Assembly (NCBI RefSeq): GCF_044704955.1
Contig: NW_027252668.1
Location: 11,904,001-11,968,000, forward strand
From: Pristiophorus japonicus
Lineage: Eukaryota
Direction of reading: 5' to 3'
Length of the DNA: 64,000 nt
A program made the translations under genes and the position numbers. Positions 1-34,858 of this stretch are shown here, piece after piece. The first letter of the stretch is position 1, and every line of letters begins with the position of its first letter. The notes under the pieces were generated by a model. The model did no database searches and was not told the DNA's origin. It saw only the letters and a list, made by a program, of their open reading frames with translations.

Positions 1-1821
1 CCAACATTGGGAACATTCTTCCTGCATCTAACCTGTCTAACCCCGTCAGAATTTTAAACGTTTCTATGAGGTCCCCTCTCATTCTTCTGAACTCCAGTGA
101 ATAAAAGCCCAGTTGATCCAGTCTTTCTTGATTGGTCAGTCCCGCCATCCCGGGAATCAGTCTGGTGAACCTTCGCTGCACTCCCTCAATAGCAAGAATG
201 TCCTTCCTCAGGTTAGGAGACCAAAACTGTACACAATACTCCAGGTGTGGCCTCATCAAGGCCCTGTACAATTGTAGCAACACCTCCCTGTCCTTGTACT
301 CAAATCCCCTCGCTATGAAGGCCAACATGCCATTTGCTTTCTTAACCGCCTGCTGTACCTGCATGCCAACCTTCAATGACTGATGTACCATGACACCCAG
401 GTCTCTTTGCACCTGCCCTTTTCCTAATCTGTCACCATTCAGATAATAGTCTGTCTCTCTGTTTTTACCACCAAAGTGGATAACCTCACATTTATCTACA
501 TTATACTTCATCTGCCATGCATTTGCCCACTCACCTAACCTCTCCAAGTCGCTCTGCAGCCTCATAGAATCCTCCTTGCAGCTCACACTGCCACCCAACT
601 TCGTGTCATCTGCAAATTTGGAGATACTACATTTAATCCCCTCGTCTAAATCATTAATGTACAGCGTAAACAGCTGGGGCCCCAGCACAGAACCTTGCGG
701 TACCCCACTAGTCACTGTCTGCCATTCTGAAAAGTCCCCATTTACTCCTACTCTTTGCTTCCTGTCTGAAGCAGTTCTCAATCCATGTCAGCACACTACC
801 CCCAATCCCATGTGCTTTAACTTTGATCATTAATCTCTTGTGTGGGACCTTGTCGAAAGCCTTCTAAAAGTCCAAATATACCACATCAACTGGTTCTCCT
901 TTGTCCACTCTACTGGAAACATCCTCAAAAAATTCCAGAAGATTTGTCAAGCATGATTTCCCTTTCACATATCCATGCTGGCTTGGACCTATCATATTAT
1001 CTCTTTCCAAATGCACTGCGATGACATCCTTAATATTTGAATCCATCATTTTACCCACTACCGATGTCGGGCTGACCGGTCTGTAATTCCCTGTTTTCTC
1101 TTTCCCTCCTTTTTTAAAAAGTGGGGTTACATTGGCTACCCTCCACTCCATAGGAACTGATCCAGAGTCAATGGAATGTTGGAAAATGACTGTCAATGCA
1201 TCCACTATTTCCAAAGCCACCTCCTTAGGTACTCTGGGATGCAGTCCATCAGGCCCTGGGGATTTATCGGCCTTCAATCCCATCAATTTCCCCAACACAA
1301 TTTCCCGACTAATAAGGATTTCCCTCAGTTCCTCCTCCTTACTAGACCCTCCGATTCCTTTTATATCCGGAAGGTTGTTTGTGTCCTCCTCAGTGAATAC
1401 CGAACCAAAGTACTTGTTCAATTGGTCCGCCATTTCTTTGTTCCCCGTTATGACTTCCCCTGATTCTGACTGCAGGGGACCTACGTTTGTCTTTACTAAC
1501 CTTTTTCTCTTTACATATATATAGAAACTTTTGCAATCCGTCTTAATGTTCCCTGCAAGCTTCTTCTCGTACTCCATTTTCCCTGCCCTAATTAAACCCT
1601 TTGTCCTCCTCTGCTGAGTTCTAAATTTCTCCCAGTCTCCGGGTTCTCTGCTATTTCTGGCGAATTTGTATGCCACTTCCTTGGCTTTAATGCTATCCCT
1701 GATTTCCCTTGATAGCCACGGTTGAGCCACCTTCCCTTTTATATTTTTACGACAGACAGGAATGTACAATTGTTGTCGTTCATCCATGCGGTCTCTAAAT
1801 GTCTGCCATTGCCCATCCACA

Positions 1822-2995
1822 GTCCCACACAAGAGATTAATGTGCAAAGTTAAAGCACATGGGATTGGGGGTAGTGTGCTGACGTGGATTGAGAACTGGT
1901 TGTCAGACAGGAAGCAAAGAGTAGGAGTAAACGGGTACTTTTCAGAATGGCAGGCAGTGACTAGTGGAGTGCCGCAAGGTTCTGTGCTGGGGCCCCAGCT
2001 GTTTACATTGTACATTAATGATTTAGACGAGGGGATTAAATGCTGTATCTCCAAATTTGCGGATGATACTAAGTTGGGTGGCAGTGTGAGTTGCGAGGAG
2101 GATGCTATAAGGCTGCAGAGTGACTTGGATAGGTTAGGTGACTGGGCAAATGCATGGCAGATGAAGTATAATGTGGATCAATGTGAGGTTATCCACTTTG
2201 GTGGTAAAAACCGAGAGACAGACTATTATCTGAATGGTGACAGATTAGGAAAAGGGAAGGTTAACGAGACCTGGGTGTCATGGTACATCAGTCATTGAAG
2301 GTTAGCATGCAGGTACAGCAGGCGGTTAAGAAAGCAAATGGCATGTTGGCCTTCATAGCGAGGGGATTTGAATACAGGGGCAGGGATGTGTTGCTACAGT
2401 TGTACAGGGCCTTGGTGAGGCCACACCTGGAGTATTGTGTACAGTTTTGGTCTCCTAATTTGAGGACGGACATTCTTGCTATTGAGGGAGTGCAGCGAAG
2501 GTTCACCAGACTGATTCCCGGGATGGCGGGACTGACCTATCAAGAAAGACTGGATCAACTGGGCTTGTATTCACTGGAGTTCAGAAGAATGAGAGGGGAC
2601 CTCATAGAAACGTTTAAAATTCTGACAGGTTTAGACAGGTTCGATGCAGAAAGAATGTTCCCAATGTTGGGGAAGTCCAGAACCAGGGGTCACAGTCTGA
2701 GGACAAGGGGTAAGCCATTTAGGACCTTGATGAGGAGAAACCTCTTCACCCAGAGAGTGGTGAACCTGTGGAATTCTCTACCACAGAAAGTAGTTGAGGC
2801 CAATTCACTAAATATATTCAAAAGGGAGTTAGATGAAGTCCTTACTACTCGGGGGATCAAGGGTTATGGCGAGAAAGCAGGAATGGGTTACTGAAGTTTC
2901 ATGTTCAGCCATGAACTCATTGAATGGCGGTGCAGGCTAGAAGGGCTGAATGGCCTGCTCCTGCACCTATTTTCTATGTTTCTATGTTTCTATGT
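1822..2995 (+). mobile_element. 5'-truncated CR1 inserted antisense into ORF2 of the outer CR1
   Basis: RT C-terminal half ([23 protein letters not shown]), 3' UTR and (TTTCTATG)n tail at 2971-2995. The outer element resumes directly afterwards. Confidence 0.95.
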
Positions 2996-3828
2996 ATCAT
3001 TCGCCAATCTATCCTAGCCAATTCACGCCTCATACCTTCAAAGTTACCCTTCTTTAATTTCTGGACCATGGTCTCTGAATTAACTGTTTCATTCTCCATC
3101 CTTATGCGGAATTCCACCATATTATGGTCACACTTCCCCAAGGCTCCTCGCACAACGAGATTGCTAATTAATCCTCTCTCATTGCACAACACCCAGTCTA
3201 AGATGGCCTCCCCCCTAGTTGGTTCCTCGACATATTGGTCTAAAATACCATCCCTTATGCACTCCAGGAAATCCACCTCTACCGTTTTGCTTCCAGTTTG
3301 GTTAACCCAATCTATGTGCATATTAAAGTCACCCATTATAACTGCTGCCCATTTATTGCACGCCCCCCTAATTTCATGTTTGATGCCCTCCCCAACATCA
3401 CTACTACTGTTTGGACGTCTGTACACAACTCCCACTAACGTTTTTTTTCCTTTGGTATTCTGCAGCTCTACCCATATAGATTCCACATCATCCAGGCTAA
3501 TGTCCTTCCGAAATATTGCCTTAATTTGCTCCTTAACCAGCAATGCTACCCCACCTCCTTTTCCTTTTATTCTGTCTTTCCTGAATGTTGAATACCCCTG
3601 GATGTTGAGTTCCCAGCCCTGATCATCCTGGAGCCACGTCTCCGTAATCCCAATCACATCATATTTGTTAACATCTATTTGCATAGATTTATTGCGGATA
3701 CTCCTTGCATTAAGACACAAAGCCTTCAGGCTTTTACTTTTAACACCCTTTGTCATTTTAGAATTTTGCTGTACAGTGGCCCTTTTTGTTCTTTGCCTTG
3801 GGTTTCTCTGCCCTGCACTTTTCCTCAT
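2996..3828 (-). pseudogene. CR1 ORF2 APE endonuclease domain (continues at 1821-864 as linker and RT)
   Basis: ORF 2974..3828 has the APE motifs ETWL, GVVYR, GDFN, LDWVL and DHNMV. Confidence 0.9.
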
Positions 3829-4938: not shown

Positions 4939-5190
4939 CAATAACCAGCCAATCACTGTGACGTCACCTTTTGATTTTTTTCTACTTCTTTTTTGCCTTC
5001 TCCCTGTAGCTGCACAAGTACGCCTTTTATAGGCCGCTCCACGCACCTCCTCGACGCTGCTACCGATTGCCGCCGACGCTGGGCCCCGGACTCCCTGCTG
5101 TGCCTTTTATAGGCCGCTCGACGCTGCTCCCGACTCCCTGCTGTGCCTTTTATAGGCCGCTCCACGCACCTCCTCGACGCTGCTCCCGAT
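4939..5190 (-). promoter_or_regulatory. CR1 5' UTR with three GAGCGGCCTATAAAAGGC repeats and a GTGACGTCAC palindrome; candidate internal promoter
   Basis: GCCTTTTATAGGCCGCTC on + near 5023, 5102 and 5145; GTGACGTCAC at 4958-4967. Promoter function is inferred. Confidence 0.5.
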
Positions 5191-8100
5191 TGGTGCCTCA
5201 TTGTAAGCGATCCCTGGATTTGTTGTATCAGTGTAAGGGGTCCCTGGATTTGATGCCTCAGTGTAAGTTGTCCCTTGATTTCGTATCTCAATGTAAGGGG
5301 TCCCTGGATTTGATGCCTCAATGTAAGGGGTCCCTGGATTTGATGCCTTAGTGTTATGTTTCCCCGAATTTTTCTTCTCAGTGTAAGGGGTCCCCGGATT
5401 TGAATCCTCAGTGTCAGGGGTCCCTGGATTTGATGCCTCAGTGTCAGGGGTCCCTGGATTTGATCCATCAGTGTAAGAGGTCCCTGGATTTTGTTTCTTC
5501 GTGTAAGGGGTCTCTGGATTTGATGCCTCAGTGTAAGGGCTGCCTGGATTCGATGTCTCAGTGTAAGGGGTCCCTGGAGTTGATGCCTCAGTGTAAGTGC
5601 TCCCTCGATTTGATGTCTCAGTGTTTGGTGTCCCTGGATTTGATGCTTCAGTGTAAGTGGTCCTGTGATTTGATGCCTCAGTTTAAGGGTCACTGGATTT
5701 GATGTCTCCGTGTAAGAGGTCCCTGGATTTGGTGCCTCAGTGTAAGTGGTCCCTGAAGTTGATGCCACAGTGTAAGGGGTCCCTGGATTTGATGTCTCAG
5801 TGGAAGTGGTCCCTCGATTTGATGTCTCAGTGTCAGGTGTCCCTGGATTTGAAGCCTCAGTGTCAGGGGTCCCTGGATTTGGTGTCTAATTATAAGGGGT
5901 CCCTGGATTTCGTGCCTCAGTGTTAGGGGTCCCTGGATTTGATGTCTCAGTGCCAGGGCTCCCTGGATTTGATGTCTTAGTGTAAGTGGTCCCTGGATTT
6001 GATGCCTCAGTGTAAGGTGTCCCTGGATTTCGTGCCTCAGTGTTAGGGGTCCCTGGATTCGATGTCTCATTGCAAGGGTTCCCTGGATTTGGTGCCTCAG
6101 TGTCAGTGATCCCTGGATTTGATGCCTCAGTGTATGTGGTCCCTGGATTTGATGTCTCAGTGTAAGGGGTCCCTGGATTTGAATCCTCAGTGTATGGGGT
6201 CCCTGGTTTTGGTGTCTCAGTGTTCGGGGTCCCTGGACTTCGTGTCTCAGAGTAAGGGTCCCTGGATTTGATGCCTCAGTGTAATGGGTCCCTGGATTTG
6301 ATGCCTCAGTGTTAGGTTTCCACGAATTTTTCTTCTCAGTGTAAGGTGTCCCCGGATTTGAATCCTCAGTGTAAGGGGTCCCTGTATTTGATGCCTCAGT
6401 GTCAGGTGTCCCTGGATTTGATCCATCGGTGTAAGAGGTCCCTGGATTTTGTGTCTTCGTGTAAGGGGTCTCTGGATTTGATGCCTCAGTGTAACGGCTC
6501 CCTGAATTTGATGTCTCAGTGTAAGGGGTCCCTGGATTTGATCCTTCAGTGTAAGAGGTCCCTTGATTTGATGCCTCAGTTTAAGGGTCACTGGATTTGA
6601 TGTCTCCGTGTAAGGGGTCCCTGGATTTGGTGCCTCACTGTAAGTGGTCCCTGAAGTTGATGCCACAGTGTAAGGGGTCCCTGGATTTGATGTCTCAGTG
6701 GAAGTGGTCCCTCGATTTGATGTCTCAGTGTCAGGTGTCCCTGGATTTGAAGCCTCAGTGTCAGGGGTCCCTGGATTTGGTGTCTCAGTGTAAGGGGTCC
6801 CTGGATTTGGTGTATCAGTGCACGGGCTCCCTGGATATGATGTCTCAGTGTAAGGTGTTCCTGGATTTCGTGCCTCAGTGTAAGTGGTCCCTGGATTTGA
6901 TGCCTCAGTGTAAGGGGTCACTGGATTTGATGTAGCAGTGTAAGGGGTTCCTGGATTTGATGTCTCAGTGTAACGGGTCCCTGGATTTGATGTCTCAGTG
7001 TAAGGGGTCCCTGGATTCGAAGCCTCAGTGTAAGGGGTCCCTGGATTTGATGCCTCAGTGTAATAACTCCTTCGATTTGACACCTCAGTGTAAGGGGTCC
7101 CTGGATTTGATATCTCAGTGTAAACGGTCCCTGGATTTGGTGCCTCAGTGTAAGGGGTTCTTGGATTTGATGTCACAGTGTAAGGGGTCCCTGGATTTGA
7201 TGTCACAGTTTAACGGAATCCCTGGATTTGATGTCTCAGTGTAAGGGGTCCCTGGATTTGATGTCTCAGTGAAAGGGGTCCCTGGATTTGGTGTCTCAGT
7301 GTAAAGGGTCCCTGGATTTGGTGCCTCAGTGTAAGGGGTCCCTGGATTTGGTGCCTCAGTGTACGGAGTCCCTTACTTTGATGTCTCAGTGTAAGGGGTC
7401 ACTGGATTTGACGCCTCAGTGTAAGGGGTCCCTGGATTTGATATCTCAGTGTAAACGGTCACTGGATTTGGTGCCTCAGTGTAAGGGGTCCTTGGATTTG
7501 ATGTCACAGGGTAAGGGGTCCCTGGATTTGATGTCACAGTGTAACAGTATCCCTGGATTTGATGTCTCAGTGTAAGGGGTCTCTAGATTTGGTGTCTCAG
7601 TGTAAGGGGTCCCTTACTTTGATGTCTCAGTGTAAGTGGTCACTGGATTTGATGCCTCAGTGTAAGGCGTCCCTTGATTTGATGTCTCAGTGTAAGGGGT
7701 CACTGGATTTGGTGTCTCAGTGCAAGGGGTCCCTGTATTTGGTGACTCATTGTAAGGGGTCTCTGCATTTGATGTCACAGTGTAATGGGTCCCTGGATTT
7801 GATGCCTCATTGTAAGGGATCTCAGGATTTGGTGCCTCAGTGTAAGGGGTCCCTGGATTTGATGCCCCAGTGTAAGTGGTCCCTGGATTTTGTGCCTTCA
7901 TGTAAGGATTCTCTGGATTTGATGCCTCAGTGTAAGGGCTCCCTGGATTTGATGTCTCAGTGTAAGGGGTACATGGATTTGGTGCCTCAGTGTAAGGGAT
8001 CCCTGGATTTGATGCCTCAGTGTATGGGGTCCCTGGTTTTGGTATCTCAGTGTTCGGGGTCCCTGGACTTCGTGTCTCAGAGTAAGGGTCCCTAGATTTG

Positions 8101-10520
8101 TTGCCTCAGTATCAGTGTCAGAGGTCCCTGGATTTGATGTCGCAGTGTAAGGGGTCCCTGGATTTGATGTCTCAGTGTCAGGGGTCACTGGATTTGTTGT
8201 CTCAGTGTAACGGGTCCCTGGATTTGATGTCTCAGAGTAAGGGGTCCCTGGATTCGAAGCCTCAGTGTAAGGGGTCCCTGGATTTGATGCCTCAGTGTAA
8301 TGGCTCCCTGGATTTGACACCTCAGTGTAAGGGGTCCCTGGATTTGATATATCAGTGTAAACGGTCCCTGGATTTGGTGCCTCTGTGTAAGGGGTCCTTG
8401 GATTTGATTCACAGGGTAAGGGGTCCCTGGATTTGATGTCACAGTGTAACGGAATCCCTGAATTTGATGTCTCAGTGTAAGAGGTCTCTCGATTTGGTGT
8501 CTCAGTGTAAGGGGTCCCTGGATTTGGTGCCTCAGTGTAAGGGATCCCTTACTTTGATGTCTCAGTGTAAATGGTCACTGGATTTGATGCCTAAGTGTAA
8601 GGCGTCCCTTGATATGATGTCTCAGTGTAAGGGGTCCCTGGATTTGATGTCTCAGTGTAAAGGGTCCCTGGATTTGGTGTCTCAGTGTAAAGGGTCCCTG
8701 GATTTGGTGCCTCAGTGTGAGGGGTCCCTGGATTTGGTGCCTCAGTGTAAGGGGTCCCTTACTTTGATGTCTCAGTTTAAATGGTCACTGGATTTGATGC
8801 CTAATTGTAAGTCGTCCCTTGATTTGATGTCTCAGTGTAAGGGGTCACTGGATTTGATGTCTCAGTGTAAGGGGTCCCTATATTTGCTGTCTCAGTGTAA
8901 AGGGTCCCTGGATTTGGTGCCTCAGTGTAAGGGGACCCTGGATTTGGTGCCTAAGTGTAAGGGATCCCTTACTTTGATGTCTCAGTGTAAGTGGTCACTG
9001 GATTTGATGCCTCAGTGTAAGGCGTCCCTGGATTTGATGTCTCAGTGTAAGTGGTCCCTGGTTTTGATGTCTCAGTGTAAGGGGTCCCTGGATTTGGTGT
9101 CTCAGTGTAAGGGGTCCCTGGATTTGGTGACTCATTGTAAGGGGTCTCTGCATTTGATGTCACAGTGTAAGGGGTCCCTGGATTTGATGCCTCATTGTAA
9201 GGGATCCCAGGATTTGGTGCCTCATAATAAGCGATCCTTGGATTTGGTATATCAGTGTAAGGGGTCGCTGGATTTGACGCCTCATTGTAAGGGGTCCCTG
9301 GATTTGATGTCTCAGTGTAAGGGGTCCCTGGATTTGATGCCTCAGTGTAAGTGGTCCCTGGATTTTGTGCCTTCGTGTAATTGTCTCTGGATTTGGTGCC
9401 TCAGTGTAAGGGATCCCTGGATTTGATGCCTCAGTGTATGTGGTCCATGGATTTGATGTCTCAGTGTAAGTGCTCCCTGGATTTGATGCCTCAGTGTATG
9501 GGGTCCCTGGTTTTGGTGTCTCAGTGTAAGGGGTCCCTGGATTTGGTGACTCATTGTAAGGGGTCTCTGCATTTGATGTCACAGTGTAAGGGGTCCCTGG
9601 ATTTGATGCCTCATTGTAAGGGATCCCAGGATTTGGTGCCTCATAATAAGCGATCCCTGGATTTGGTATATCAGTGTAAGGGGTCGCTGGATTTGACGCC
9701 TCATTGTAAGGGGTCCCTGGACTTCGTGTCTCACAGTAAGGGTCCCTGGATTTGATGCCTCAGTATCAGTGTCAGAGGTCCCTGGATTTGATGTCGCAGT
9801 TTAAGGGGTCCCTGGAATTGATGTCACAGTGTAAGGGATCCCTGGATTTGATGCCTCATTGTAAGGGATCCCAGGATTTGGTGCCTCATAATAAGCGATC
9901 TCTGCATTTGGTGTATCAGTGTAAGTGGTCCCTGGATTTTGTGCCTCAGTGTAAGGGGTCCCTGGATTTGGTGCCTCAGTGTAAGGGGTCCCTTACTTTG
10001 ATGTCTCAGTGTAAATGGTCACTGGATTTGATGCCTAATTGTAAGGCGTCCCTTGATTTGATGTCTCAGTGTAAGGGGTCACTGGATTTGATGTCTCAGT
10101 GTAAGGGGTCCCTATATTTGCTGTCTCAGAGCATGGGTCCCTGGATTTGATGCCTCAGGGTCAGTGTCAGGGGTCGCTGGATGTGATGCCTCAGTGTAAG
10201 GGGTCCCTGGATTTGGTGTCTCGTTGTAAGGGATCCCTGGACTTGATGTCTTAGTGTAAGGGGGTAACTGGATTTGATGACTCAGTGTCAGGGGTCCCTG
10301 GATTTGGTGCCTCATTGTCATTGGTCCCTGGATTTGATGCCTCAGTGTGAGGGGTCCCTGGATTTGATGCATCAGTGTAAGGGGTCACTGAATTTGGTGC
10401 CTCATTGCAAGGGCTCGCTGGATTTGATGACACAATGCAAGTGGTTCCTGGATTTGGTGTCACAATGTTTGTGGTCCCTGGATTTCGTGTCACAATGTAA
10501 GGGAATCTTGGATTTGTTGT
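5190..10520. repeat. 30-bp minisatellite, consensus GATTTGATGYCTCAGTGTAAGGGGTCCCTG, roughly 175-180 units
   Basis: 30-nt periodicity is directly visible. It explains the decapeptide-repeat ORFs seen on both strands. Confidence 0.98.
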
Positions 10521-14110: not shown

Positions 14111-14279
14111 GTGACCAGGTCTGCCCGTAGTGTTCAGTGGGAATGGGATTACATCTTTGCTCTGGGATTTGGAAGCTGTGGGAACATTGGCACAAAATCA
14201 TACGTTTTAATGTGAAATATATCTGTTTTCTCACATGTCGAGCGGCTGTGAGAAATGGAACTTTGATTAAAGAATGGCG

Positions 14280-14367
14280 GGGCTCGTCCGCGATTTGGAC
14301 CCGGGACCTCTCGCATATCAAATGTGATCATCCCGAAGCAAGAATCAAACCCCGACACCAAAGAGCC
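14280..14367 (-). tRNA. tRNA-Pro(CGG)-like gene with 16-nt intron (14316-14331); probably a pseudogene
   Basis: GGCTCTTTGGTGTCGGGGTTTGATTCTTGCTTCGGG-[ATGATCACATTTGATA]-TGCGAGAGGTCCCGGGTCCAAATCGCGGACGAGCCC; 72+16 nt, with substitutions in stems and T-loop. Confidence 0.88.
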
Positions 14368-14610
14368 ACCGACAGTGATTTGCGTAGTTCTCAGATTCTG
14401 ACGGGAGTGAGAAAAGGTATTTGGCCCATCGTGCTTGTGTTGTCCCTCAGAGACCTATCTAATTATTCCCTCTCTCCATAGTCCTACAAATGTTACTCCT
14501 TTGACGATTATATTTTTAGTTTGAGACATGACATGAGCAAAGTGCAGCATCCTTGTCAGTTAATGGGAAATTTGGCCTTGAGGTTAATTGTGATTGAAAA
14601 AACACAATAA

Positions 14611-14692
14611 GAACGAAAATGGGATTTGAATCCGTGTGTGCAGAGAACAATTAATTAGCAGTCCATCGCCTCAACCTCTCGACCACCTCGTC
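14611..14692 (-). tRNA. tRNA-Ser(GCT) pseudogene
   Basis: GACGAGGTGGTCGAGAGGTTGAGGCGATGGACTGCTAAT...; 82 nt, no intron, stem mismatches. Confidence 0.85.
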
Positions 14693-14929
14693 TCTTATTT
14701 ACCCCCGCGTCAGCCTTTTAATCTCCTGCTTTTTGTATCCAAACACAAATAATGTGCTGGGAAATCCACTTCACAGCTTGCTCCGCCCGTGCAACCAATT
14801 CGACAATGATCAAAACGTGCTATTAGATTGTGAAAGCAAACAGCCTCACTTTACTTCCAGTGAGTGATTGGAAGCGATGGTTGGTTTTTCGGCAGAATTA
14901 TAAGAAAGCATATCACGCAGCGAATTAAT

Positions 14930-15018
14930 TGACCGCCGCAGGACTTGAACCTGCAATTTTGCAATAAAGTCTCAGCTACAATCGAAGTCAAACACCTTAT
15001 CAATTAAGCCACGCGGTT
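14930..15018 (-). tRNA. tRNA-Arg(TCG) pseudogene with 16-nt intron
   Basis: AACCGCGTGGCTTAATTGATAAGGTGTTTGACTTCGA-[TTGTAGCTGAGACTTT]-ATTGCAAAATTGCAGGTTCAAGTCCTGCGGCGGTCA; 73+16 nt. Confidence 0.85.
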
Positions 15019-15888
15019 TCTGCCATGACCGCACCCTTTCTTGTTGTGACAATTGGGAGCTAATTTGGAGCGACTGCTGTATGAAGGAGTGGATTTCAGA
15101 AACATTGAGCGGATTTCGAGTAAATGAACAGATGCATTGCGATCTGTGTGCGCACCGGTGCAGGCAACCCTATTTTAACTTGGAACACAGCAGTTTATCA
15201 ATTCGGTCATTGCAGCTGAAATCACACTCCTTCTCAAACTATAAAGGATGAGGTGGGATTATGAGAAAATCAGTCTTAAATGGAGAGATTATGAAACGAA
15301 ACTGACAACCATCCTGTTTAAACAGGCACAGAATGATGCGGGACTGCAAGCACATCCCTTTTACACAACTGTGGAAAGACTCCTGACTGACAGCAATTCC
15401 CTTTTAAAAGAATAAGGTGAGATTGCTATAATCACTGAAGACAATTGTGCAGGCAGAACAAAAAAGCACATTTATTTTGGAAGTTAAAAAGTTGGGATTG
15501 GATATAAATATACATTTATACATACAAAGTCAGTCAGTGTTGTGTTGTCTTAATTTGAAAATAAGGGTGGAGGATGTCATCATGTCACACAGCCCACACG
15601 CAAGCCCTCGATAAAATCGCTATATTTCTAACTAGTTTATTTTCCCTTCTTTCAGATGTGGAATAGCAAAATCCCACAGCAGATTCTATTACCGTCAGAT
15701 AATCCACGAAGGAGTGTTCAATCAAATCAGTATGGTTTCAAGCTGCATGTAATGCATTTTTCTCACATGACAGTAAGATCGCACAGCACGCTTGCACACA
15801 CACTCGCTTACACAAACACACAAACAAACTAAAATTCCTGCACCCTCTAAAGGCAGTTTTAGAAATTTGAAATTTGAACTCCGGGACA

Positions 15889-16055
15889 GACAGCACATCG
15901 CTTTTAAACAGACACAGCATGATGCAGAGCTGATCGCACACCATTTTAAACAGACACACAATGATGCGGGTCTGATAGCACAGCATTTTAAATAGACAGA
16001 GAATGATCCCGGACAGACAGCACGTCACCTTCAGAGGGACACGGAAACAGAATGA
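15889..16055. repeat. ~42-bp tandem repeat (GACAGCACATCNCTTTTAAACAGACACAGAATGATGCGGGNCT), about 4 units
   Basis: Units start near 15889, 15932, 15974 and 16016. Related units occur near 15300, 17945, 19810, 38840, 45095 and 50110. Confidence 0.75.
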
Positions 16056-16913
16056 ATATAAACAAATAAATATGTAAAGCTCAGCAGGTCGTGCAGATTC
16101 TGTGGATGAAGAACCCGGATTCACGTTCTGTCGGATAATCATTCCTATATTTTAGGAAAAAGTTCAAGATTACAGATTTTTTTCAAAAAAATAGCGCCTG
16201 AAAATAATACGCAGCGAGAAACGTCAAATGGGAACGTCTGTGATACAGTGTAACGCAGGAGTGATTAAATAATAAATGGCGCAATGGAGAAAGGCAAAGT
16301 GGGGGTTTATCGGGCAATAACGTAACAAAGGATGGTCCAGAGGAGGTGTTCGTGGGAATAGCAGAACCATTATCAGACAATGGGAGCGGTGCTTATCACC
16401 CGATACGTTGAACCTCATGTTGAGGCCAGAAGACTATAACATGCCTGCAATATAAGGTGTCAACGCTTTTTTATCAGACCAAGATGCTTGGCCACCCCGG
16501 ATTGATTTCCTGTCCGCTCTGAATTCGGCAACCAAGAGAATAATTCAAAAGCCAGCTTCTCACATCTTTTCAGCTCTCGAGAAACAGGACGCATTCATAT
16601 TCAGGGCAGAGGTGCAGATTGACGCTGAATGTATGCTTATCCCAATTGAGGTGAACTGATGCGTACAGACAGGAAGATATACTGATCAATTATTGGCGGC
16701 AACTAAACACAGGCTTCGGTTATCCAACGAGTCACAGAGCCGAGTACCTCTGAGATACTTTAACTTTACTCAGTTGTGTGAGTTTCACTTTGCTCTGGGA
16801 TTTGGAAGCTGTGGGAACAATCGGCGCAAAATCACACGTTTTATTGTGAAATATATCTGTTTTCTCACATGTCAAGCTGCTGTGAGGAGCGGAACTTTGA
16901 ATAAAAAATGGCG

Positions 16914-17000
16914 GGGCTCGTTCAGGATTTAGCCCGAGACCTGTCGCATTGCAAATGTGATCATTCCTAAGGGAGATTCATACCCCGATACCAACGAGCC
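16914..17000 (-). tRNA. tRNA-Pro(AGG) pseudogene with 16-nt intron
   Basis: GGCTCGTTGGTATCGGGGTATGAATCTCCCTTAGGA-[ATGATCACATTTGCAA]-TGCGACAGG...ACGAGCCC, followed by a T6 run (A6 at 16903-16908 on +). Confidence 0.85.
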
Positions 17001-17265
17001 GCCGACGGTGAAGAGCGCAGCTCTCAGATTCTGACTGTAGTGAGAAAAGATATTAGGCCCATCATGCCTGCGCTGTCCCTCAGCGACCTATCGAATTAGT
17101 CCCCCTCTCCGCAGTTCCACAAATGTTTTCCTGTTGACGAATATATTATTAATTTGAGACATGACATGATCAAAGTGCAGCATCCTTGTCAGTGAAAGGT
17201 AAATTCGGCGATGAGGTTAATGTGATTGACAAAGTGACCAGGTGAGTCAAAGCTGAACACAAATA

Positions 17266-17347
17266 CGACGAGGATGAGATTCGAACACATGCGTGCAGAA
17301 CAACATTGATTAGCAGTCCATCGCCTTAACGTCTCGGCCACCTCGTC
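17266..17347 (-). tRNA. tRNA-Ser(GCT) pseudogene
   Basis: GACGAGGTGGCCGAGACGTTAAGGCGATGGACTGCTAATC...TTCGAATCTCATCCTCGTCG; 82 nt. Confidence 0.88.
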
Positions 17348-17588
17348 TCTTATTCAGCCAAGCGTCAGCCTTTCAATCTTCTGCTTTTTGTATCCCAACA
17401 GAAATAATGTCGAAGAAAGTCCAATTCACAGCTTGCTCTGCCCGTGCATGCAGATCGACAATGATGAAAACGTGCCATTAGAATCTTAAAGCAAACAGCC
17501 TTCCTTTACTTCAGGTGAGTGACTCGAAGAGATGGTTGCTTTTTCGGCAGAATCGCAACAAATATAAAATTTCACGCAGCGAGTTAAT

Positions 17589-17677
17589 TGACCGTGGCAA
17601 GATACAAATCTGCAATGTTTTGATAAGTTCGCGGTTATAATCGAAGTCAGAGGCCGTATCCATTCAACCACGCGGCC
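17589..17677 (-). tRNA. tRNA-Arg(TCG) pseudogene with 16-nt intron
   Basis: GGCCGCGTGGTTGAATGGATACGGCCTCTGACTTCGA-[TTATAACCGCGAACTT]-ATCAAAACATTGCAG...CACGGTCA. Confidence 0.85.
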
Positions 17678-18344
17678 GCTGCCACCATCATATAATGTGT
17701 TGTTGTGCATATTGAGAGCAAAATCAAGGAGTGGATTGAGGAAAAGATGAGCATGTTTCGAGTCAATGAACAGATGCACTGCGATCTGGGTGCGTACCCG
17801 GCACAGGAAACCGCAATGTAAATTGGAACACAACAGTTTAACAATTCGGTCATTGCAGCTGAAATCATACTCCTTCTCAAACGATACAGGATGACCCGGG
17901 TTTATGAGAAAATCCTTTTTAAAGAGGAAGATTATGAACCGGAACTGACAACCAGCATTTTTAAACAGACACAGAATGCAATGTGATCCCTTTTACCCAG
18001 ATGCAGAATCACCCTTGACTGTCCTCAGAACCCTTTTAAAAGAATAAAGTGAGATTGCTATCATCACTGAAGGTAATTGTGCTGTGGAGCTCAGGACCAC
18101 GAGGGGCAGATAAGGTTATTGAAGCAACAGGTGATAGACAGGCAGGAAGCAGGGAGGGACGTAAAACCAGCCCAGACTGAAAGCCAATTTACAAATATAT
18201 TAAACATTTTAAGAAAATAAATACATTTCAATTTTATTTTTAAAAAAGCGAATTTGATTTGTTTTAAATAAATAAATAATTGATTCATAATCTAGATATT
18301 TTTTGATTGAACGAAGGCTGTGTGACTGGAAGAATTCCATTGGA

Positions 18345-19110
18345 AATGAGCGGGTCCCTCTCATCAACAAAGGCAGACATTGATGTGGAGATTCAGCAAC
18401 GCCTTCAGTGCTCCTGTGCAGCTTTCAGCCGCCTGCGGAAAAAACTGTTTGAAGACCAGTCCCTCAAATCTACCACCAAACTCATGGTCTACAGGGCTGT
18501 AATAATACCCGCCCTCCTGTATGGGTCTGAGGCATGGACGATGTGCAGAAGGCACCTCAGGTCGCTGGAGATATATCATTAACGATATCTCCGCAAGATC
18601 CTGCAAATCACCTGGGAGGACAGGCGCATCAACATCAGTGTCCTCGACCAGGGTAACATCCCCAGTATTGAAGCACTGTCCACACTCGATCAGCTTCGCT
18701 GGGCAGCCCACATAGTACGCATGCCAGATGTGAGACTCCCTAAGCAATGCTTTATGTGGAGCTTCTTCATGGTAAACGACCCAAAGGAGGACAGCGTAAA
18801 CATTATAAGAACACCCTCAAAGCCTCGCTGGTAAAGTACGACATCACCACTGACACCTGGGAGACTCTGGTCGCAGATCGCCCAAGGTGGAAAAAATCCA
18901 TCCGAGAGGGCGTTGAGCTCTTTGAGGCTCGATGCAAGGAACATGAAGAGCCCAGGCGCACGCAGCAGAAGGAGCGTGTGGCAAACCAGCCCTACCGACC
19001 CCTTACCCTGACGAATGTCTGTCCCAACTGTGAAACGGTCTGTGGCTCTCGTATCGGACTGCTCAGCCATCAAAGAATTCTCTTTGGGAGTGGAAGCAAT
19101 CCTCCATAGG
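18345..19110 (+). mobile_element. RTE-clade LINE 3' fragment
   Basis: EIQQRLQC...TKLMVYRAVIIPALLYGSEAW; GKRPKGGQRKHYK; terminal CPNC..CGSRIGLLSHQR finger. Confidence 0.88.
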
Positions 19111-19149
19111 ACCCCTGGACCTGTTGGCTTATATCCTGTGGATACAACC

Positions 19150-19540
19150 AATGCACCCATAGGATATAAGCCATCAGGTCCAGGGGAATTGTCTGCCTTT
19201 AGTCCCATTATTTTATCTTATACTACTTCTTTAGTGATAATGATAGTATTAAGTTCCTCCCTCCAGATAGCCCTTGGATTATCCACTATTTGCATGTTTT
19301 TACTGACTTCTACCGTGAGAACTGAAACAAAATATTTGTTCAAAGTCTCTGCCATTTCCCTGTTCTCGATTATTAATTCCCCAGTCTCATACTCCAGGAG
19401 ACTAACATTTACTTCAGCCATTATTTTCCTTTTTCCATACCTGTCGGAACTCTTACTATCTCTTTTTTATATTTCGTTCAAGTTAACATTCATATTTTTA
19501 GTTGTTCTTTGCTGGATTGCAAAAATGTCCCAATCCTCTG
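19150..19540 (-). mobile_element. CR1 ORF2 fragment
   Basis: EMAETLNKYF and KADNSPGPDG motifs. Confidence 0.8.
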
Positions 19541-24764: not shown

Positions 24765-27700
24765 ATAAGAACATAAGAATAGGCCATCTAGCTCCTCCAG
24801 CCTGATCCGCCACTCAACAAGATCATGGCAGATCTGGCCGTGGACTCAGCTCCACTGACCCGCCCGCTCCCAGTAACCATTAATTCTGTTATTGGTAAAA
24901 AATGTATCTATCTGTGATTTGAATACATTCAATGAGCTAGCCTCAACTGCTTCCTTGGGCAGAGAATTCCACACATTCAGAACACTCTGGGAGAAAAAAT
25001 TCCTTTTCAACTCGGTTTAAAATTGGTCCCCTAGTTCTCGTCTCCCCGCCCAGTGGAAACAACCTCTCTGCCTCTATCTTGTCTATCCCTTTCATTATTT
25101 GAAATGTTGCTTTCAGATCACCCCTCCTCCTTCTGAACTCAAACGAGTAAAGACCCAGTCTACTCAATCTATCATAATAAGGTAACCCCCTCATCTCCTG
25201 AATCAACCTAGTGAATCGTGTCTCTATCCCCTTCGAAGCTAGTATCTCATTCCTAAAGAAAGGTGATAAAAAATGGACGCAGTACTCCAGGTGCGGCCTC
25301 ACCAATACCCTGTACAGTTGCAGCAGGACCTCCCTGCTTTTGTACTCCATCCCTCTCGCAATTAATGCCAACATTCCATTCGCCTCCCTGATTACTTGCT
25401 GCACCTGCAAACTAACACTTTGGGATTCATGCACAAGGATCCCCAGGATCCTCTGCACATCAGCATGTTGTAATGTCTCCCCATTCAAATAACATTCCTT
25501 TTTACTGTTTTTTTTTCCCCAAGGTGGAAGACCTCACATTTCCCGACCTTGTATTCCATCTGCCAAACCATTGCCCATTCGCTTAACCGATCTAAATCTC
25601 TTTGCAGCCTCTCTGTTTCCTGCGCACAATCCGCTTTTCCACTAATCTTTGTGTCATCTGCAAATTTTGTTACACGACACTCTGTCCCCTCTTCCAGGTC
25701 ATCTATGTATATTGTAAACAGTTGTGGTCCAAAAACCGATCCCTGCGGCACACCACTAAACACCGATTTCCAACCCGAAAAGGACCCATTTATCCCGACT
25801 CTCTGCTTTCTGTTAGCTTGCCAATCCTCTATCCATGCTAATACATTTCCTATGACTCCGCGTAACTTTATCTTCTGCAGTAACCTTTTGTGTGGCACCT
25901 TATCGAAAGACTTTTGGAAATCTAAATACACCATATCCATCGGTACACCTCTATCGAACATGCTCGTTATATCCTCAAAGAATTCCAGTAAATTATTTAA
26001 ACATGCTTTCCCCTTCCTGAATCCATGTTGCGTCTGCTTGATTGTACTATTCCTATCTAGATGACCCGCTATTTCTTCCTTAATGATAGCTTCAAGCATT
26101 TTCCCCACTACAGATGTTAAACTAACCGGCTTATAGTTACCTGCCTTTTGTCCGCCCTCTTTTTTAAACAGAGGCGTTACATTTGCTGCTTTTTAATTCT
26201 CTGGTACCTCCCCAGAGTCCAGAGAAATTTGGCAGATTATAACGAATGCATCTGCTCGAAAGTCTGCCATCTCTTTTAATACCCTGGGATGCATTTCACC
26301 AGGACCAGGGGACTTGTCTACCTTGAGTCCTATTAGCCTTTCCAGCACTACCCCACTCGTGATAGTGATTATGTCAAGGTCCTTCCTTCCCACATTCACG
26401 TGACCAGCAATTTTTGGCAAGGTTTTTGTATCTTCCACTGTGAAGACCGAAGCAAAATAATTGTTTGAGGTCTCAGCCATTTCCACATTTCCCATTATTA
26501 AATCCCCCTTCTCATCTTCTAATGGACCAACATTTACTTTCGTCACTCTTTTCCGTTTTATATTTCTGTAAAAGCTTTTACTAACTATTTTTATGTTTTG
26601 TGCAAGTTTACCTTCGTAATCTATCTTTCCTTTCTTTATTGCTTTCTTCGTCATTCTTTGCTGTCGTTTAAAATTTTCCCAATCTGCTAGTTTCCCACTA
26701 ACCTTGGCCACCTTATACGCATTGGTTTTTATTTTGATACTCTCCTTTATTTCCTTGGTTATCCATGGCTGGATATCCCTTCTCTTTCCGCCCTTCATTT
26801 TCACTGCAATATATTTTTGTTGAGCACTATGAAAAAGCTCCATAAATGTCCTCCACTGTTCTTCAATTGTGTCACCGTTTAGTCTGTGTTTCCAGTCTAC
26901 TTTAGCCAACTCTGCCCTCATCCCACTCCAGTCCCCTTTGGCTAAGCATAGTACGCTCCTTTGAGACACTACTTCCTCACCCTCAATACTGTATTACAAA
27001 TTCAACCATGCTGTGATCACTCATTCTGAGAGGATCTTTTACTGGGAGATCGTTTATTATTCCTGTCTCATTACACAGGACCAGATCTAAGATAGCTTGC
27101 TCCCTTGCATGTTCTGTAACATACTGTTCTATGAATTCCTCCTCAAGGCTACCCAGTGCGATTTGATTTGATCAATCGAGTGTAGGTTAAAATCCACCAT
27201 GATTACTGCCGTTCCTTTTTCACATGCCTCCATTATTCCCTTGGTTATTGCCCGCCCCACCATGAATCTATTATTTCGGGGGCCGATAAACTACGCCCAC
27301 CAGTGACTTTTTCCCCATACTATCTCTAATCTCCACCCACAATGATTCAAAATTTTTTTCATTGGAGCCAATATCGTCTCCCACAACTGCCCTGATATCA
27401 TCCTTTATTAACAGAGCTACCCCACCTCATTTCCCTTCTTGTCTATCTTTCTGAATTGTCAGATATCCTTGTATGTTTAATTCCCTGTCCTGGCCAACCT
27501 GCAACGTTTCTGTAATGGCCACCAAATCATACCCATTTATGATGATTTGTGCCTTCAACTCATTTACTTTATTTCGAATGCTGCGTGCGGTTAGGTAGAG
27601 TGTTTTAATACGAGTTTTTAAACCATGATTTTTAGTTTTGACCCCTCCTGCAGCCCCTTTATATTCATGCATATTGTCCCTTCCTATCACCTTGTCGTTT

Positions 27701-28302: not shown

Positions 28303-28385
28303 CGCTGCGTGCAGGGTTCGACCCTGCGCAGGAAAAACCCCATTAGATTTCGAGTCCAACGCCTTAACCACTCGGCCATCGCAGC
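28303..28385 (-). tRNA. tRNA-Ser(CGA), near intact
   Basis: GCTGCGATGGCCGAGTGGTTAAGGCGTTGGACTCGAAATCTAATGGGG...GCAGGGTCGAACCCTGCACGCAGCG. T54>G and a 7:66 mismatch; T-run terminator downstream. Confidence 0.92.
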
Positions 28386-29349
28386 TACACAGTAGAGCTG
28401 CTTTAATAGTCGAATCGTTGGTACAATTTATCAGAGAGACCGCCTGCATGCTTGCACTATTGAATCTCCCAGACGATGTGAAAATTAAATCGTAGAATCA
28501 CAGAATCTTACAGCAAAGAAGAAAATTTCGGTCAGAACAGAAAGAATTTACATTCCGGGAAAAACTGAACAGTCTGGAGAGCTTCTTTCTCGAAAAAGAA
28601 GTGAGATATATTTTTAACATGATGAAGGTATTTGATCGAGTTGATGTGGAGAAAATGTTTGCTATTGTGCAGGAGTTCAGAACGGGAGCTCACTGATAAA
28701 TTCAGCAGACAATTCAAGAGCAACTTATTTACCAAAGAGTGGTAAGAATGTGGAAGATGCTACAAGAGCAGTATTTGAAGCGAATAGCACAGATTCATTT
28801 TAAAGGGATTACCTAAGCACATGACTGAGAAAGCAATAGAACAATATGCTGATAGAATCAAGTGAAGTAGGGTAGTTTGCAGCATTAACTCTAGCATCAC
28901 CAGTTAGGTGCAATTGTCTGTTTCTGTGATGCAATCTCTACATAACGTTATGTAACACACATGTTAAACAACAACAACTTATGCATAATTAGCACCTTGA
29001 AATTTGCGAAACGTCCAAGGCGCTTCACAAGAGTACTATGCGATACAAATTTGACACCGAGCCACTAAATACAAATTAGCGCAGGTGACTAAAGGATTGG
29101 TCAACCAGGTATGCTTGATAATGAGGAAGAAAGCTGTACATTGCAGGAAGATATCAAAGAACTGGTCAGGGGTGCAATGGAATTCATCCCGGAGAAGTGT
29201 TAGATAATGCAGTTGGGGAGTGCTTATAGGTAAAGCGAATAAACATTAAATGTTAGGACACTAATAAGTGTAGAGGTGCAAATGGCCTTGGAGTGCATGT
29301 CCACAGAATCCTTGACGGTAGCAGGGCAGGTAGATAAGATGCTTGTGAA

Positions 29350-32300
29350 GTATAGACAGAAAGGAAAAGGAGGTGGGCTGGCGTTGCTGGTTAAAGAGGA
29401 AATTAATGCAATAATAAGGAGGGACATTAGCTTGGATGATTTGGAAGCAGTATGGGGGGAGCTGCAGAATACCAAATGGCAGAAAACGCTAGTGGGAATT
29501 GTGTGCAGACCTCCAAACAGTAGTAGTGAGGTTGGGGACAGCATCAAACAAGTAATAAGGGATGTGTGCAATAAAGGTACAGCAGTTACCATGGGCGACT
29601 TTAATCTATATATTGATTGAGCTGACCAAACTGGTAGCAATGCCGTGGAGGACGATTTCCTGGAGTATATTAGGGATGGTGTTCCAGACCAATATGTCGA
29701 GGAACCACCAAGAGAGCTGGCCATCGTAGACCAGGTGATGTGTAATGAGAAGGGACTAATTGGCAATCTTGTTGTGCGAGGACCCTTGGGGAAGAGTGAC
29801 CATAACATGGTAGAATTCTTTATAAGATGGAGAGTGACACAGTTAATTCAGAAAGTAGGGACCTGAACTTTATGAAAGGTAATTTCGATGGTATGAGGCG
29901 TGAATAGAATAGAATAGACTCTCAAATGATACTTAAAAGGTTGATGGTGGATAGGAATTGGCAAACATTTAAAGATCACATGGATGAACTTCAACAATTG
30001 TACATCACTGTCTGCAGTCAAAATTAAACGGGGAAGATGGCTCAACCGTGGCTAACAAGGGAAATTAAGGATAGCGTTAAATCCAAGGAAGAGTTATATA
30101 AATTGACCAGAAAAAGCAGGAAACCTGAGGACTGGGAGAAATTTAGATTTCAGCCAAGGAGGACTAAGGATTTCGTTAAGAGGGGGAACAAAGATTACGA
30201 GACGAAGCGTGCCAGAAGCATAACAAATGACTGCCAAAGCTTCTATATATATGTGAAGAGAAAAACATTAGTGAAGTCAAATGTAGGTCCCTTGCAGTCG
30301 GATTCATGTGAATTTATAATGGGGAACAAAGAAAAGGCAGACTAATTGAACAAATACTTTGGTTCTGTCTTCACGACGGAAGACACAAATAACCTTCTCG
30401 ATGTACTAGGGGACCGAGGGTCTAGAGCGAAGGAGAAACTGAAGGATATGCTGATTAGATGGGAAATTGTGTTGGGGAAATTGATGGGATTGAAGGCTGA
30501 TAAATCCCCGGGACCTGATAATCTGCATCCCAGAAAACTGAAGGAAGCGTCCCGAGAAATAGTGGATGCATTCGTGAACATTTCCCAAGAGTCTATCGAT
30601 TCTGGATCAGGTCATGGACTGGAGGGTTGGTAATGTAACACCACTTTTTAAAACAAGTGGGAGAGAGAAAATGGGTAATTATAGATCGGTTAGCCTGACA
30701 TCAGTCGTGGGGAAAATGTTGGAATCAATTATTAAATATGAAATCGCTGCGCATTTGGAAAGCAGTGACAGGGTCGGTCCAAGACAGCATGGATTATGAA
30801 GTGAAAATCAAGCATGACGAATCTTCCAGAATTGTCTGAATATGTAACTTGCAGAGTGGACAAGGGAAAACCAATGGATGTGGTGTTTTTGGACTTTCAA
30901 AAGGCTTTAGATAAGTTCCCACACAAGAGACTTGTGTGCAAAATCAAAGCACATGGTATTGGGGGTAATGTACTTACGTGGATAGAAACAGAGAAACAAA
31001 GAAAATAGGTGCAGGTGTAGGCCATTCGGCCATTCGAGCCTACACTGGCATTCAATCAGATCATGGCTGACCATTCCTTCAGTACCGCTGTCCTGCTGTC
31101 TCTCCATACCCCTTGATCTCCTTAACAGTAAGGGCCATATCTAACTCCCTCTTGAATATATCCAATGAACTGGCATCAACAACTCTCTGCGGCAGGGAAT
31201 TCCACAGGTCAACAATTCTCTGAGTGAAGAAGTTTCTCCTCATCTCAGTCGTAAATGGCCTGCCCCTTATCCTAAGACTATCTCCCCTGGTTCTGGACTT
31301 CCCCAATATCGAGAACATTCTTCCCGCATTTAACCTGTCCAGACCTGTCAGAATCTTATATGTTTCTATGAGATCCACTCTCATCCTTCTAAACTCCAGT
31401 GAATAAAGGCCCAGTTGATCCAGTCTCTCCTCATATGACAGCCCAGCCATCCCTGGAATCAGTCTTGTGAACATTCGCTGCACTCCCTCAATAGCAAGAA
31501 CGTCCGTCCTCAGACTCGGAGACCAAAACTTAACACAATATTCCAGTTGAGGCGTCATTAAGCCCTGTATAACTGCAGTAAGACCTCCCTGCTCCTATAT
31601 TCAAATCCCCTAGCTACGAAAGCCAACATACCATTTGCCTTCTTTACCACCTGCTGTAAATGCATGCCCACTTTCAGTCATTGATGAACCATGACACTCA
31701 GGTCTCGCTGCACTCCCATTTTTCTAGTCTGCCACCATTCAGATAATATTTTGCCTTCGTGTTTTTGCCCCCATTTATACAGATTATACTGCATCTGCCA
31801 TGTATTTGCCCACTCACCTTATCTGTCCACGTCACCCTGCAACCTCTTAGCGTCTTCCTCACAACTCACACCGCCACCCAGTTTAGTGCCATCCACAAAC
31901 TTGGAGATATTACATTCTATCCCCTTATCCAAATCGTTAATGTATATTGTAAAGAACTGGGGTCCCAGCACTGAGCCCTGCGGCACTCCCCTAGTCACTG
32001 CCTGCCATTCTGAAAAAGGACCCGTTTATCCCGACTCTCTGCTTCCTGTCTGCCAACCAGATCTCTATCTACGTCAGTACATACCACCAATACCATGCGT
32101 TTTGATTTTATATAACAATCTCTTGTGCGGGACCTCGTCAACAGCCTTTTGAAAGCCCCAAAACACCACATCCACTGGTTCTCCTTGTGCACTCTACTAG
32201 TTACATCCTCAAAAAATTTCAGAAGACTCGTCAAGCACGATTTCCCTTTCATAAATCTATGCTGACTCGGTCCGATCCTGTCACTGCTTTCCAAATGGGC

Positions 32301-33782
32301 ACATTAATGATTGATTCCAACATTTTCCCCATTACGGATGTCAGGCTAACCGGTCTATAATTACCCGCTTTGTCTCTCCCTCCATTTTTAAAAAGTGGCG
32401 TTACATTAGCTACCCTCCAGTACATAGGAACTGATCCAGAGTCGATAGATTGTTGGAAAATGATCACCAATGCATCTACTATTTCTCGGGCCACTTCCTT
32501 AAGTACTCTAACATGCAGAATATCAGGACTCGGGGATTTATCGGCGTTTAATCCCATCAACTTCCCTAACACAATTTCCCACCTAATAAGGATATCTTTC
32601 AGTTCCTTATTCTCACTAGACCCACTGTCCCCTAGTACATTCGGAAGGTGATCTGTATCTTCCTTTGTGAAGACAGAACCGAAGTGTCGAGAACTGGTTG
32701 GCAGACAGGAAGTAGAGAGTGGGGATAAACGGGTCCTTTTCAGAATGGCCGGCAGTGACTAGTGGAGTGCCTCAGCGCTCAGTGCTGGGACCCCAGCTCT
32801 TCACAGAATATATTAATGATTCAGATGAAGGAATTGAGTGTAATATCTCCAGGTTTGCAGATGAAACTAAATTAGCTGGCGGTGTGAGCCGTGAGGAGGA
32901 CGCTAAGTGGCTGCAGGCTGAGTTGGACAGGTTAGGTGAGTTGGCAAATAAATGGCAGATGCAGTATAATGTTGATAAATGTGCGATTAACCACTTTGAT
33001 GGCAAAACAACGAAGGCAGAATATTATATGCATGGTGGCAGATTAGGAAAAGGTGAGGTGTAACGAGACATGGGTGTCATGATTCATCAGTCATTGAAAG
33101 TTGGCATGCAGGTACAGCAGGCTGTGAAGAAGGCAAATGGTATTTTGGCCTTCATATCTAGGGGATTTGAGTATAGGAGCAGGGTCGTCTTACTGCAGTT
33201 GTAAAGGGCATGGGTGAGACCTCACCTGGAATATTGTGTTCTGTTTTATTCTCCTAATCTGAGGAAGGAAGTTCTTGCTATTGATGGAGTGCAGCGAAGT
33301 TTCACCAGACTGATTCAAGGGATGGCTAGACTGACATATGAAAAGAGACTGCATCAACTGGGTCATTATACACTGGAGTTTAGAAGGATGAAAGGGTATC
33401 TTGTAGAAAGATATAAGATTCCGACGGGACTGGACAGGTTAGATGCGGGAAGAATGTTCAAAATGTTGGGAAAGTCCAGAACCAGGGGACACAGTCTTAG
33501 GATAAGGGGTAGGCCATTTAGAACGAAGATGAGGAGAAACATCTTCACTCAAAGAGTTGTTAACCTGTGGAATTCCCTGCTGCAAAGAGTTGTTGATGCC
33601 AATTCATTGGATATATGCAACAGGGAGTTATTGTGGCCCTTATGGCTACAAGGATCAAGAGGTAGGGAGGAAACAGGAAAGCGGTACTGAGGGAATGATC
33701 AGCCATGATCTTATTCAGTGGTGGTGCAGGCTCGAAGTGTCGAATTGCGTAATGCTGAATCTATTTTCGATGTTTCTATGTT
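29350..33782 (+). mobile_element. CR1 (APE to 3' tail) interrupted by a nested antisense CR1
   Basis: ORF2 fragments at 29350-30986 resume at 32689 (TGGATAGA...GAACTGG) and end in TTTCGATGTTTCTATGTT. Confidence 0.92.
30987..32688 (-). mobile_element. 5'-truncated CR1 nested antisense
   Basis: Tail reads AGAAACAGAGAAACAAAGAAAATAGG on + at ~30985. RT ORFs at 31079-31558, 31995-32294 and 32249-32572. Confidence 0.92.
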
Positions 33783-34499: not shown

Positions 34500-34858
34500 T
34501 AGAACCTGCGTCTATTACACAGGAACAAGAGCAAGCCATCGAACATGTTACAGAAGGATAGTAGGATTCGATTAGTCCCTCGAGCCAGTTGCAAAGGACA
34601 AGAGGAAATAATTCAGATCCTTGGGCTTTTTATACAAGAATAGTAGAACGCCTTCGGCCGCTCGTACCTGCTGCATAGATGTCGAGGAGGCACCCTTTCC
34701 TGTTACACAGAATTAGCTGGAGGCCATTCAGCCGCACTGCACTGTTGCACAGGGAAATGAGGAGGCCATTAACGCCTCAAATCTGTGCCTTCGGAGAGGC
34801 AGAAGCCCATCAGTTCCTTGAGCTTGCTCTACAAGAGCTGTATAAGTCCATTTAGATA
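34500..34858. repeat. Degenerate ~40-bp tandem array (CCTGTTACACAGGAACAGGAGGAGGCCATTCAGCCCCTCGAG); continues at 37670-37850 after a CR1 insertion
   Basis: Repeated GGAGGCCATT..CCCTCGAG..CTGTT words. Sister arrays at 38550-38670, 39290-39690, 45570-45900, 50480-50850 and 52300-52710. Confidence 0.75.

Follow-up and report, generated by a model that had tools for sequence, protein, structure and literature searches.

The window, as the whole stretch of 64,000 nucleotides from Pristiophorus japonicus analyzed here is called (contig NW_027252668.1, positions 11,904,001 to 11,968,000), harbors two tRNA-Pro copies that are each interrupted at the canonical site of tRNA introns (37/38) by an insert of 16 nt. 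The two window copies are dead and the Pro family to which they belong is probably alive. The genome likely contains lineage-specific introns of the canonical type in its tRNA-Pro and tRNA-Arg(TCG) genes, and these introns are likely removed by the splicing endonuclease TSEN to give working tRNAs. This reading is carried by features that are read directly from the genome, namely the position of the insert, its presence in hundreds of copies, perfect exons in three Pro anticodons, T runs behind most of the genes, and the conservation of the exons.

According to the proposed mechanism, the intron-bearing Pro and Arg-TCG genes of tandem arrays would be transcribed by RNA polymerase III. TSEN would subsequently cleave the precursor at 37/38, and the exon halves would be ligated by RTCB, so that the resulting tRNA would be the one that the intronless genes also encode. 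The arrays themselves would turn over by birth and death. We infer cleavage by TSEN from the known biochemistry of the enzyme, which involves the mature tRNA body, a ruler mechanism, and a pair between base 32 and the third-last intron base (32:-3).

Intron-bearing genes in the genome

The 5.9-Gb assembly was searched with a pattern of intact Pro exon sequence flanking the junction and a gap of 6 to 30 nt. The pattern has 574 matches genome-wide and 0 in the reversed control; therefore, the insert at 37/38 is no chance feature. An error of sequencing or assembly, or an insert that landed by accident in two pseudogenes, would agree with the heavily mutated state of both window copies, but the insert is found in hundreds of copies on many contigs and in several intron types, and we consider this explanation excluded for all practical purposes. 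Furthermore, a search of sequencing runs with one intron-bearing locus recovered 58 to 63% of the sampled words in four DNA runs of one sample, which is possibly the assembly's own sample. The corresponding intronless Pro pattern has 9 matches, and a tenth gene was found with one mismatch. These ten intronless genes cover the anticodons AGG, TGG, and CGG.

The Pro sample consists of 30 of the 574 loci and 60 stretches of 10 kb around listed matches (~0.86 Mb, deduplicated by coordinate); it is biased toward pattern matches and includes the 20 loci of the window type described below. It holds 144 unique Pro genes, 134 of which carry an insert at 37/38 (most were chosen for it), and the insert is 16 nt long in 113 of these 134. 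When base 34 is ignored, 14 insert-bearing genes on 10 contigs have exons identical to those of an intronless gene (7 AGG, 4 TGG, 3 CGG). One exon mismatch is found in 21 further genes, two in 15, and three or more in 84. Intact intron-bearing Pro genes are thus present in large numbers in this genome, a point on which the original prediction had staked itself. Most of the genes with intact exons are followed within ~25 nt by a run of at least four T (read by eye), which is absent from the 25 nt behind some copies of the C133-type lineage introduced below. All six genomic Pro matches with a cytosine at position 20 carry an insert.

The Arg-TCG gap pattern has 746 matches genome-wide, of which 745 bear an insert and one is intronless. 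Perfect exons, with positions 37 and 73 ignored, occur in 7 of the 144 sampled insert-bearing Arg-TCG genes. These genes mostly have A37 and A73, and the sole intronless match has G37 and G73. On contig C32, one copy matches the intronless gene at every base of both exons and ends in a TTTT terminator. Where Arg-TCG lies in a common Arg-Ser-Pro unit, it shows the same intron pattern as Pro. The isotypes were assigned by the exons, which are identical to those that intronless Pro and Arg-TCG genes have in this genome and not to the Arg-TCT body. ARAGORN calls over the ~0.86 Mb, a scope below genome-wide, gave no further unexpected intron-bearing family, and an apparent intron-bearing Thr-AGT gene on contig C13 is a mutated Pro copy.

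Several observations concern the surroundings of these genes. The contig C32 cluster (L138, G000:C32:13.37 Mb) contains intact Arg-TCG(intron), Ser-CGA, and Arg-TCT(intron) genes side by side. A Leu-CAA gene with a 35-nt intron lies immediately upstream of a perfect intron-bearing Pro-CGG gene (L023, G000:C8:172.87 Mb). Dispersed Arg-TCG(intron) copies on large chromosomes (L083, L085, L086, L089, L091, L096) share a common short flank that is inverted in some loci, as if a DNA-transposon-like element had carried the copies or been their insertion site; on contig C5, two such copies stand back to back. At array loci such as L034-L050 and L073-L074, ARAGORN gives many intron-bearing Pro genes the identity Phe, Leu, or Ile, and it labels some Arg-TCG genes as Pro. 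Given such mislabeling, automated annotation may hide both families.

Conservation, the anticodon-intron pair, and competing readings

The type A intron, which ends in TTGAAA, is found in an Arg-Ser-Pro unit of ~3.1 kb that forms tandem arrays. Six type A arrays were compared by their majority lines (2-13 copies each). Between arrays, the Pro exons are variable at 1 of 71 sites and the flanks at 268 of 1720 (15.6%; Fisher p = 0.00024). The lone variable exon site stems from a tie in a two-copy array, and among the 40 exon sites that the search pattern does not cover, none varies (p = 0.003). The Pro intron varies at 4 of its 16 sites. The same units provide an internal control: their Arg exons are variable at 9 of 66 sites, and their Ser gene is internally deleted. 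Because Arg and Ser have diverged, taking majority lines does not in itself wipe out divergence. The pattern between arrays is that of purifying selection on the Pro exons. In the 20 bases upstream of Pro, 8 sites are variable (p = 0.007); such a hypervariable 5' flank is described for active tRNA genes (PMC6130373), and this mutation signature points indirectly to transcription of the array genes.

Of the 56 distinct Pro introns, 55 have as their third-last base a purine (A in 51, G in 4) that could pair with U32. In Arg-TCG, G stands at -3 opposite C32 in 13 of 15 near-intact introns and in 57 of 78 overall. For calibration, standard intron families of the same genome have G at -3 in 8 of 8 Arg-TCT, 8 of 8 Ile, and 3 of 7 Tyr introns. 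TSEN recognizes the mature body together with the 32:-3 pair and accepts varied intron lengths (PMC10539383, PMC10485636). The pair in the new introns is weak evidence, compatible with splicing and not a proof of it. A large tandem array of Tyr-GTA genes (G000:C1:476.18-477.13 Mb, period ~2.3 kb) has A at -3 opposite C32 and is without the usual anticodon-intron pair.

A number of points weigh against spliced, working genes. Within arrays, the exons drift about as fast as or faster than the flanks (for example, 0.025 versus 0.009 on contig C31), and individual copies are therefore under weak or no selection. The arrays were chosen through the exon pattern, which introduces ascertainment; moreover, the six arrays are interrelated, and their majority lines rest on as few as two copies. 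Most sampled copies are damaged, as three or more exon mismatches occur both in the 84 Pro genes given above and in 125 of 144 Arg-TCG genes. The match counts may include haplotype duplicates (L149 equals L150 over the stretch compared), and collapsed arrays may hide copies. The ten intronless genes could alone supply tRNA-Pro, so that nothing compels the intron-bearing ones to function. The run search with one intron-bearing locus gave no informative RNA run: 18 runs contain shares of 0.08-0.13 of the words, which were not counted, as shared exons alone could explain them, and two further runs of the same species contain 0.00. In minimum-energy folds of the anticodon arm with its intron, the 32:-3 pair forms in only 1 of the 20 Pro arms and 4 of the 11 Arg arms. 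Folding of these 20 Pro and 11 Arg arms against 300 shuffles showed no excess of stability (lowest p = 0.08); as no arm folded better than with shuffled introns, helix stability was dropped as support.

The decay of most copies and the drift of exons along with flanks within arrays would also be expected if the arrays were a silent satellite-like repeat, in which an insert-bearing ancestor was amplified and the exon identity came about through recent expansion or conversion from intronless genes. The window sub-family has spread to many contigs (1461 candidates, 40 scored) despite 0 matches with an intact T loop, all three Pro anticodons are covered by intronless genes, and the Tyr-GTA array indicates that big arrays need not be good splicing substrates. 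A silent repeat, however, leaves unaccounted for that the Pro exons are held constant between arrays as the flanks vary and as Arg and Ser of those very units decay, and that the 5' flank is hypervariable. Conversion would have to mend each exon separately and yet spare the insert. We regard a silent repeat as unlikely.

It is less likely still that the genes are transcribed and their insert is poorly removed, so that they would serve as a source of unspliced tRNA-like RNA or fragments with selection on promoter and body only. The anticodon-intron helices are indeed weak, consisting mostly of A-U and G-U pairs, and the folds predicted for them often miss the 32:-3 register. Selection, however, covers the entire 71-nt body including the acceptor and anticodon stems, and several unrelated inserts all lie exactly at 37/38. 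In addition, the eukaryotic enzyme is described as relying on the body and a ruler mechanism, with a full helix not being a prerequisite (PMC4090602, section 5). Removal by TSEN remains the reading that we prefer.

Intron lineages and the decayed units of the window

The 56 distinct Pro introns derive from about four lineages. Besides type A, a type B intron is found in the C133 array, whose separate unit also includes Val-TAC and Leu-CAG genes. Its flanks are dissimilar and differ by ~35-40% from those of the first lineage even where they can be aligned; its insert lies at the same 37/38 site. On contig C13 (G000:C13:24.629-24.635 Mb; L025, L026, L064, L065), three to four Pro-AGG genes carry introns of 19-21 nt and of two kinds, again at 37/38. 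The two best-kept genes of this cluster have C20, and in one copy the anticodon has drifted to AGT. The C13 cluster is a candidate for an old founder locus.

No donor was found among the standard intron families, as the new introns do not resemble any of those sampled from Tyr (7), Ile (8), or Arg-TCT (8) (best p = 0.04 in 276 pairwise shuffle tests), and comparison with the one Leu-CAA intron sampled gave no match. A likeness of the Arg-TCG intron to Pro type B, one of 55 pairs compared (p = 0.0055), was lost on correction and is a lead only. A further scenario is offered tentatively, as we consider it rather doubtful: sharks may have gained spliced tRNA introns repeatedly, at least three times separately in Pro and once in Arg-UCG. 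One intron would perhaps have passed between the Arg-UCG and Pro families, a G-to-A change compensating at the anticodon-intron pair. Amplification would then have turned the genes into arrays that supply much of the Pro and Arg-UCG tRNA, perhaps in oocytes, by splicing.

The window contains two decayed, duplicated units with the order Arg-TCG(intron), Ser-GCT, and Pro(intron) (Table 1). They are homologous to tandem arrays elsewhere in the genome; the identity is 80-85% with the unit of the C750 array and 73-76% with the majority line of the C176 array. Both inserts claimed by the original prediction are present at 37/38. In copy 1, the insert boundaries are unable to slide, and the -3 base is A as had been stated; in copy 2, an A at position 37 lets the left boundary slide by one, and the C at -3 is unable to pair with U32. 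Compared with L051, an intronless Pro gene of the same genome, copy 1 has 7 exon substitutions, including U55 and C62 in the T arm, and copy 2 has 10 substitutions and a 1-nt deletion in the T loop (11 lesions in all). Neither copy has a mature body with intact A and B boxes, as the T loop is broken, and judged by these lesions and the broken B box, both are pseudogenes. Neither was called by ARAGORN or Rfam at default settings in the window. Relaxed ARAGORN gave 93 calls, which were mostly spurious.

Table 1 Features of the Arg-Ser-Pro units and related tRNA copies in the window
Feature	Position	Strand	Remarks
Arg(i)-Ser-Pro(i) unit, two copies	14155..18082 (14155-15450 + 16788-18082)	-	77.8% identity, ~2.63 kb spacing
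tRNA-Pro(CGG) pseudogene, copy 1	14280..14367	-	insert at 37/38; G37; 7 exon substitutions besides the anticodon
Intron of copy 1, 16 nt, canonical position	14316..14331	-	ATGATCACATTTGATA; A at -3, pairable with U32
tRNA-Ser(GCT), decayed, intronless	14611..14692	-	Rfam tRNA 23.9 bits, below gathering score
tRNA-Arg(TCG), decayed	14930..15018	-	16-nt insert at 37/38 (14966-14981)
tRNA-Pro(AGG) pseudogene, copy 2	16914..17000	-	16-nt insert 16949-16964; C at -3
tRNA-Ser(GCT), partly decayed, intronless	17266..17347	-	45.9 bits
tRNA-Arg(TCG), decayed	17589..17677	-	16-nt insert at 37/38
tRNA-Ser(CGA), decayed copies of contig C32-type cluster	42227-42308, 28303-28385
tRNA-Arg(TCT), decayed copy of contig C32-type cluster	45328-45419
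tRNA-Arg(TCG)	48157-48245	+	16-nt insert at 37/38

Searching the genome with copy 1 at the DNA level yielded 1461 candidates. Of these, 40 were scored, and all 20 that were retrieved have the window-type intron and a damaged T arm. A genome-wide pattern that combines the window intron type with an intact T loop has 0 exact matches, and the sub-family therefore probably spread after its T loop had been damaged. Its intron is an offshoot of type A, with 10 of 16 bases identical to the intron of the intact arrays (shuffle p = 0.02, uncorrected). The A at -3 of copy 1 had been taken as an argument for a real spliced ancestor rather than a random insertion. The base itself is compatible with such an ancestor and weak evidence on its own, since Pro introns consist of 42% A and 54% purine and fall into few lineages. 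A spliced ancestor is better favored by the plentiful intact intron-bearing Pro genes, whose exons appear to be under purifying selection, although the window copies themselves are pseudogenes.

Other features of the window include decayed and rearranged copies of the contig C32-type cluster in its right half (~41700-50450), a 30-bp tandem repeat of ~150 units (~5080-10000), and an interspersed repeat of 1-2 kb with direct and inverted copies that are 65-95% alike (1-3600, 25000-26600, 29300-41000, 56100-59800). The latter repeat also adjoins the contig C32 cluster. A near-perfect palindrome of ~80 bp lies at 19109-19189; its identity as mir-135 was rejected, as the Rfam score is below the gathering threshold on both strands and the sequence is a palindrome.

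Relation to known tRNA introns

Animal tRNA introns are reported in Tyr-GUA, Ile-UAU, Leu-CAA, and Arg-UCU and, in the cited passages of a recent survey, are essentially absent elsewhere (PMC12530127). Four spliced tRNAs are described in human (PMC12168002). As far as sequence can tell, canonical-type introns are present here in isotypes for which animals have been reported to lack them. In this genome, the standard families have introns as well, with gap matches numbering 702 for Tyr, 122 for Ile, and 28 for Arg-TCT and with one intron-bearing Leu-CAA gene. The new introns resemble those of the four families in being single, short (16-21 nt), and located at 37/38, in a -3 base that could pair with base 32, and in the standard cloverleaf of their exons. 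They differ in their isotypes, Pro with three anticodons and Arg-UCG, and in that the Pro pair is U32:A and not C32:G; in addition, genes with the intron occur alongside intronless ones whose exons are the same. The ~3-kb tandem unit with several tRNA genes in many copies also recalls the 3.18-kb oocyte-type tRNA gene repeat of Xenopus, in which, however, the intron-bearing gene is Tyr. Older human annotations contain a single low-scoring Pro-AGG prediction with an insert.

The Squalomix preprint (10.1101/2025.06.08.657570) likewise describes elasmobranch tRNA loci as abundant and clustered, with many intron-containing loci in sharks; in its passages cited here, no isotype is named for them, no unexpected families are reported, and no test of selection or splicing is given. 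The cited part of another preprint (10.1101/2025.10.17.683076) contains nothing relevant to intron-bearing Pro or Arg-UCG. In a search of the openly accessible literature, no paper was found that names intron-bearing Pro or Arg-UCG families in a vertebrate. The elephant shark is included in the tRNAscan-SE data (PMC8450103), and raw predictions of such genes may already be in GtRNAdb.

The Pro and Arg-TCG introns could also be an ancient vertebrate or deuterostome trait that was lost in bony vertebrates, with the same mechanism and a different history, to which we assign a small chance. The single-copy C13 genes carry introns unlike those of the arrays, and Pro introns at 37/38 are common in other eukaryotes, with 85 matches in 80 metagenome loci (80 of at least 121 loci were covered) and a -3 purine in 49 of 66 distinct introns. 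We take the contigs concerned to be fungal-looking. The acceptor stem of this genome, however, is found in 0 of the 85 metagenome genes, and hence no second animal is present among the loci examined. The surveys of GtRNAdb moreover call introns essentially absent from other metazoan tRNAs in the passages cited above (PMC12530127). Lineage-specific gain, which we prefer, is known from yeasts, where introns were recently gained in Lachancea Ala-UGC and Kluyveromyces Gly-UCC (PMC4090602, section 18). The new introns share the 37/38 site with the Pro introns of non-animal eukaryotes and would be like the yeast gains in being specific to a lineage; they differ from non-animal Pro in acceptor stems and intron sequence, and from the yeast gains, which concern two to three genes each, by their presence in hundreds of genes of a vertebrate.

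The way in which canonical introns arise in eukaryotic tRNA genes is described as unexplained, and the mechanism is considered hard to imagine (PMC4090602, section 18). In this genome, one and the same exon body occurs with several separate inserts, and intronless twins can serve as controls. Exon variants that are private to intron-bearing genes, such as C20 in Pro and A37 with A73 in Arg, would let ordinary tRNA-seq decide on splicing. The four-family rule of recent surveys does not hold for a vertebrate in which intron-bearing Pro and Arg-UCG genes number in the hundreds, and repeated intron gain, if true, would make this genome a vertebrate record of the birth and spread of tRNA introns.

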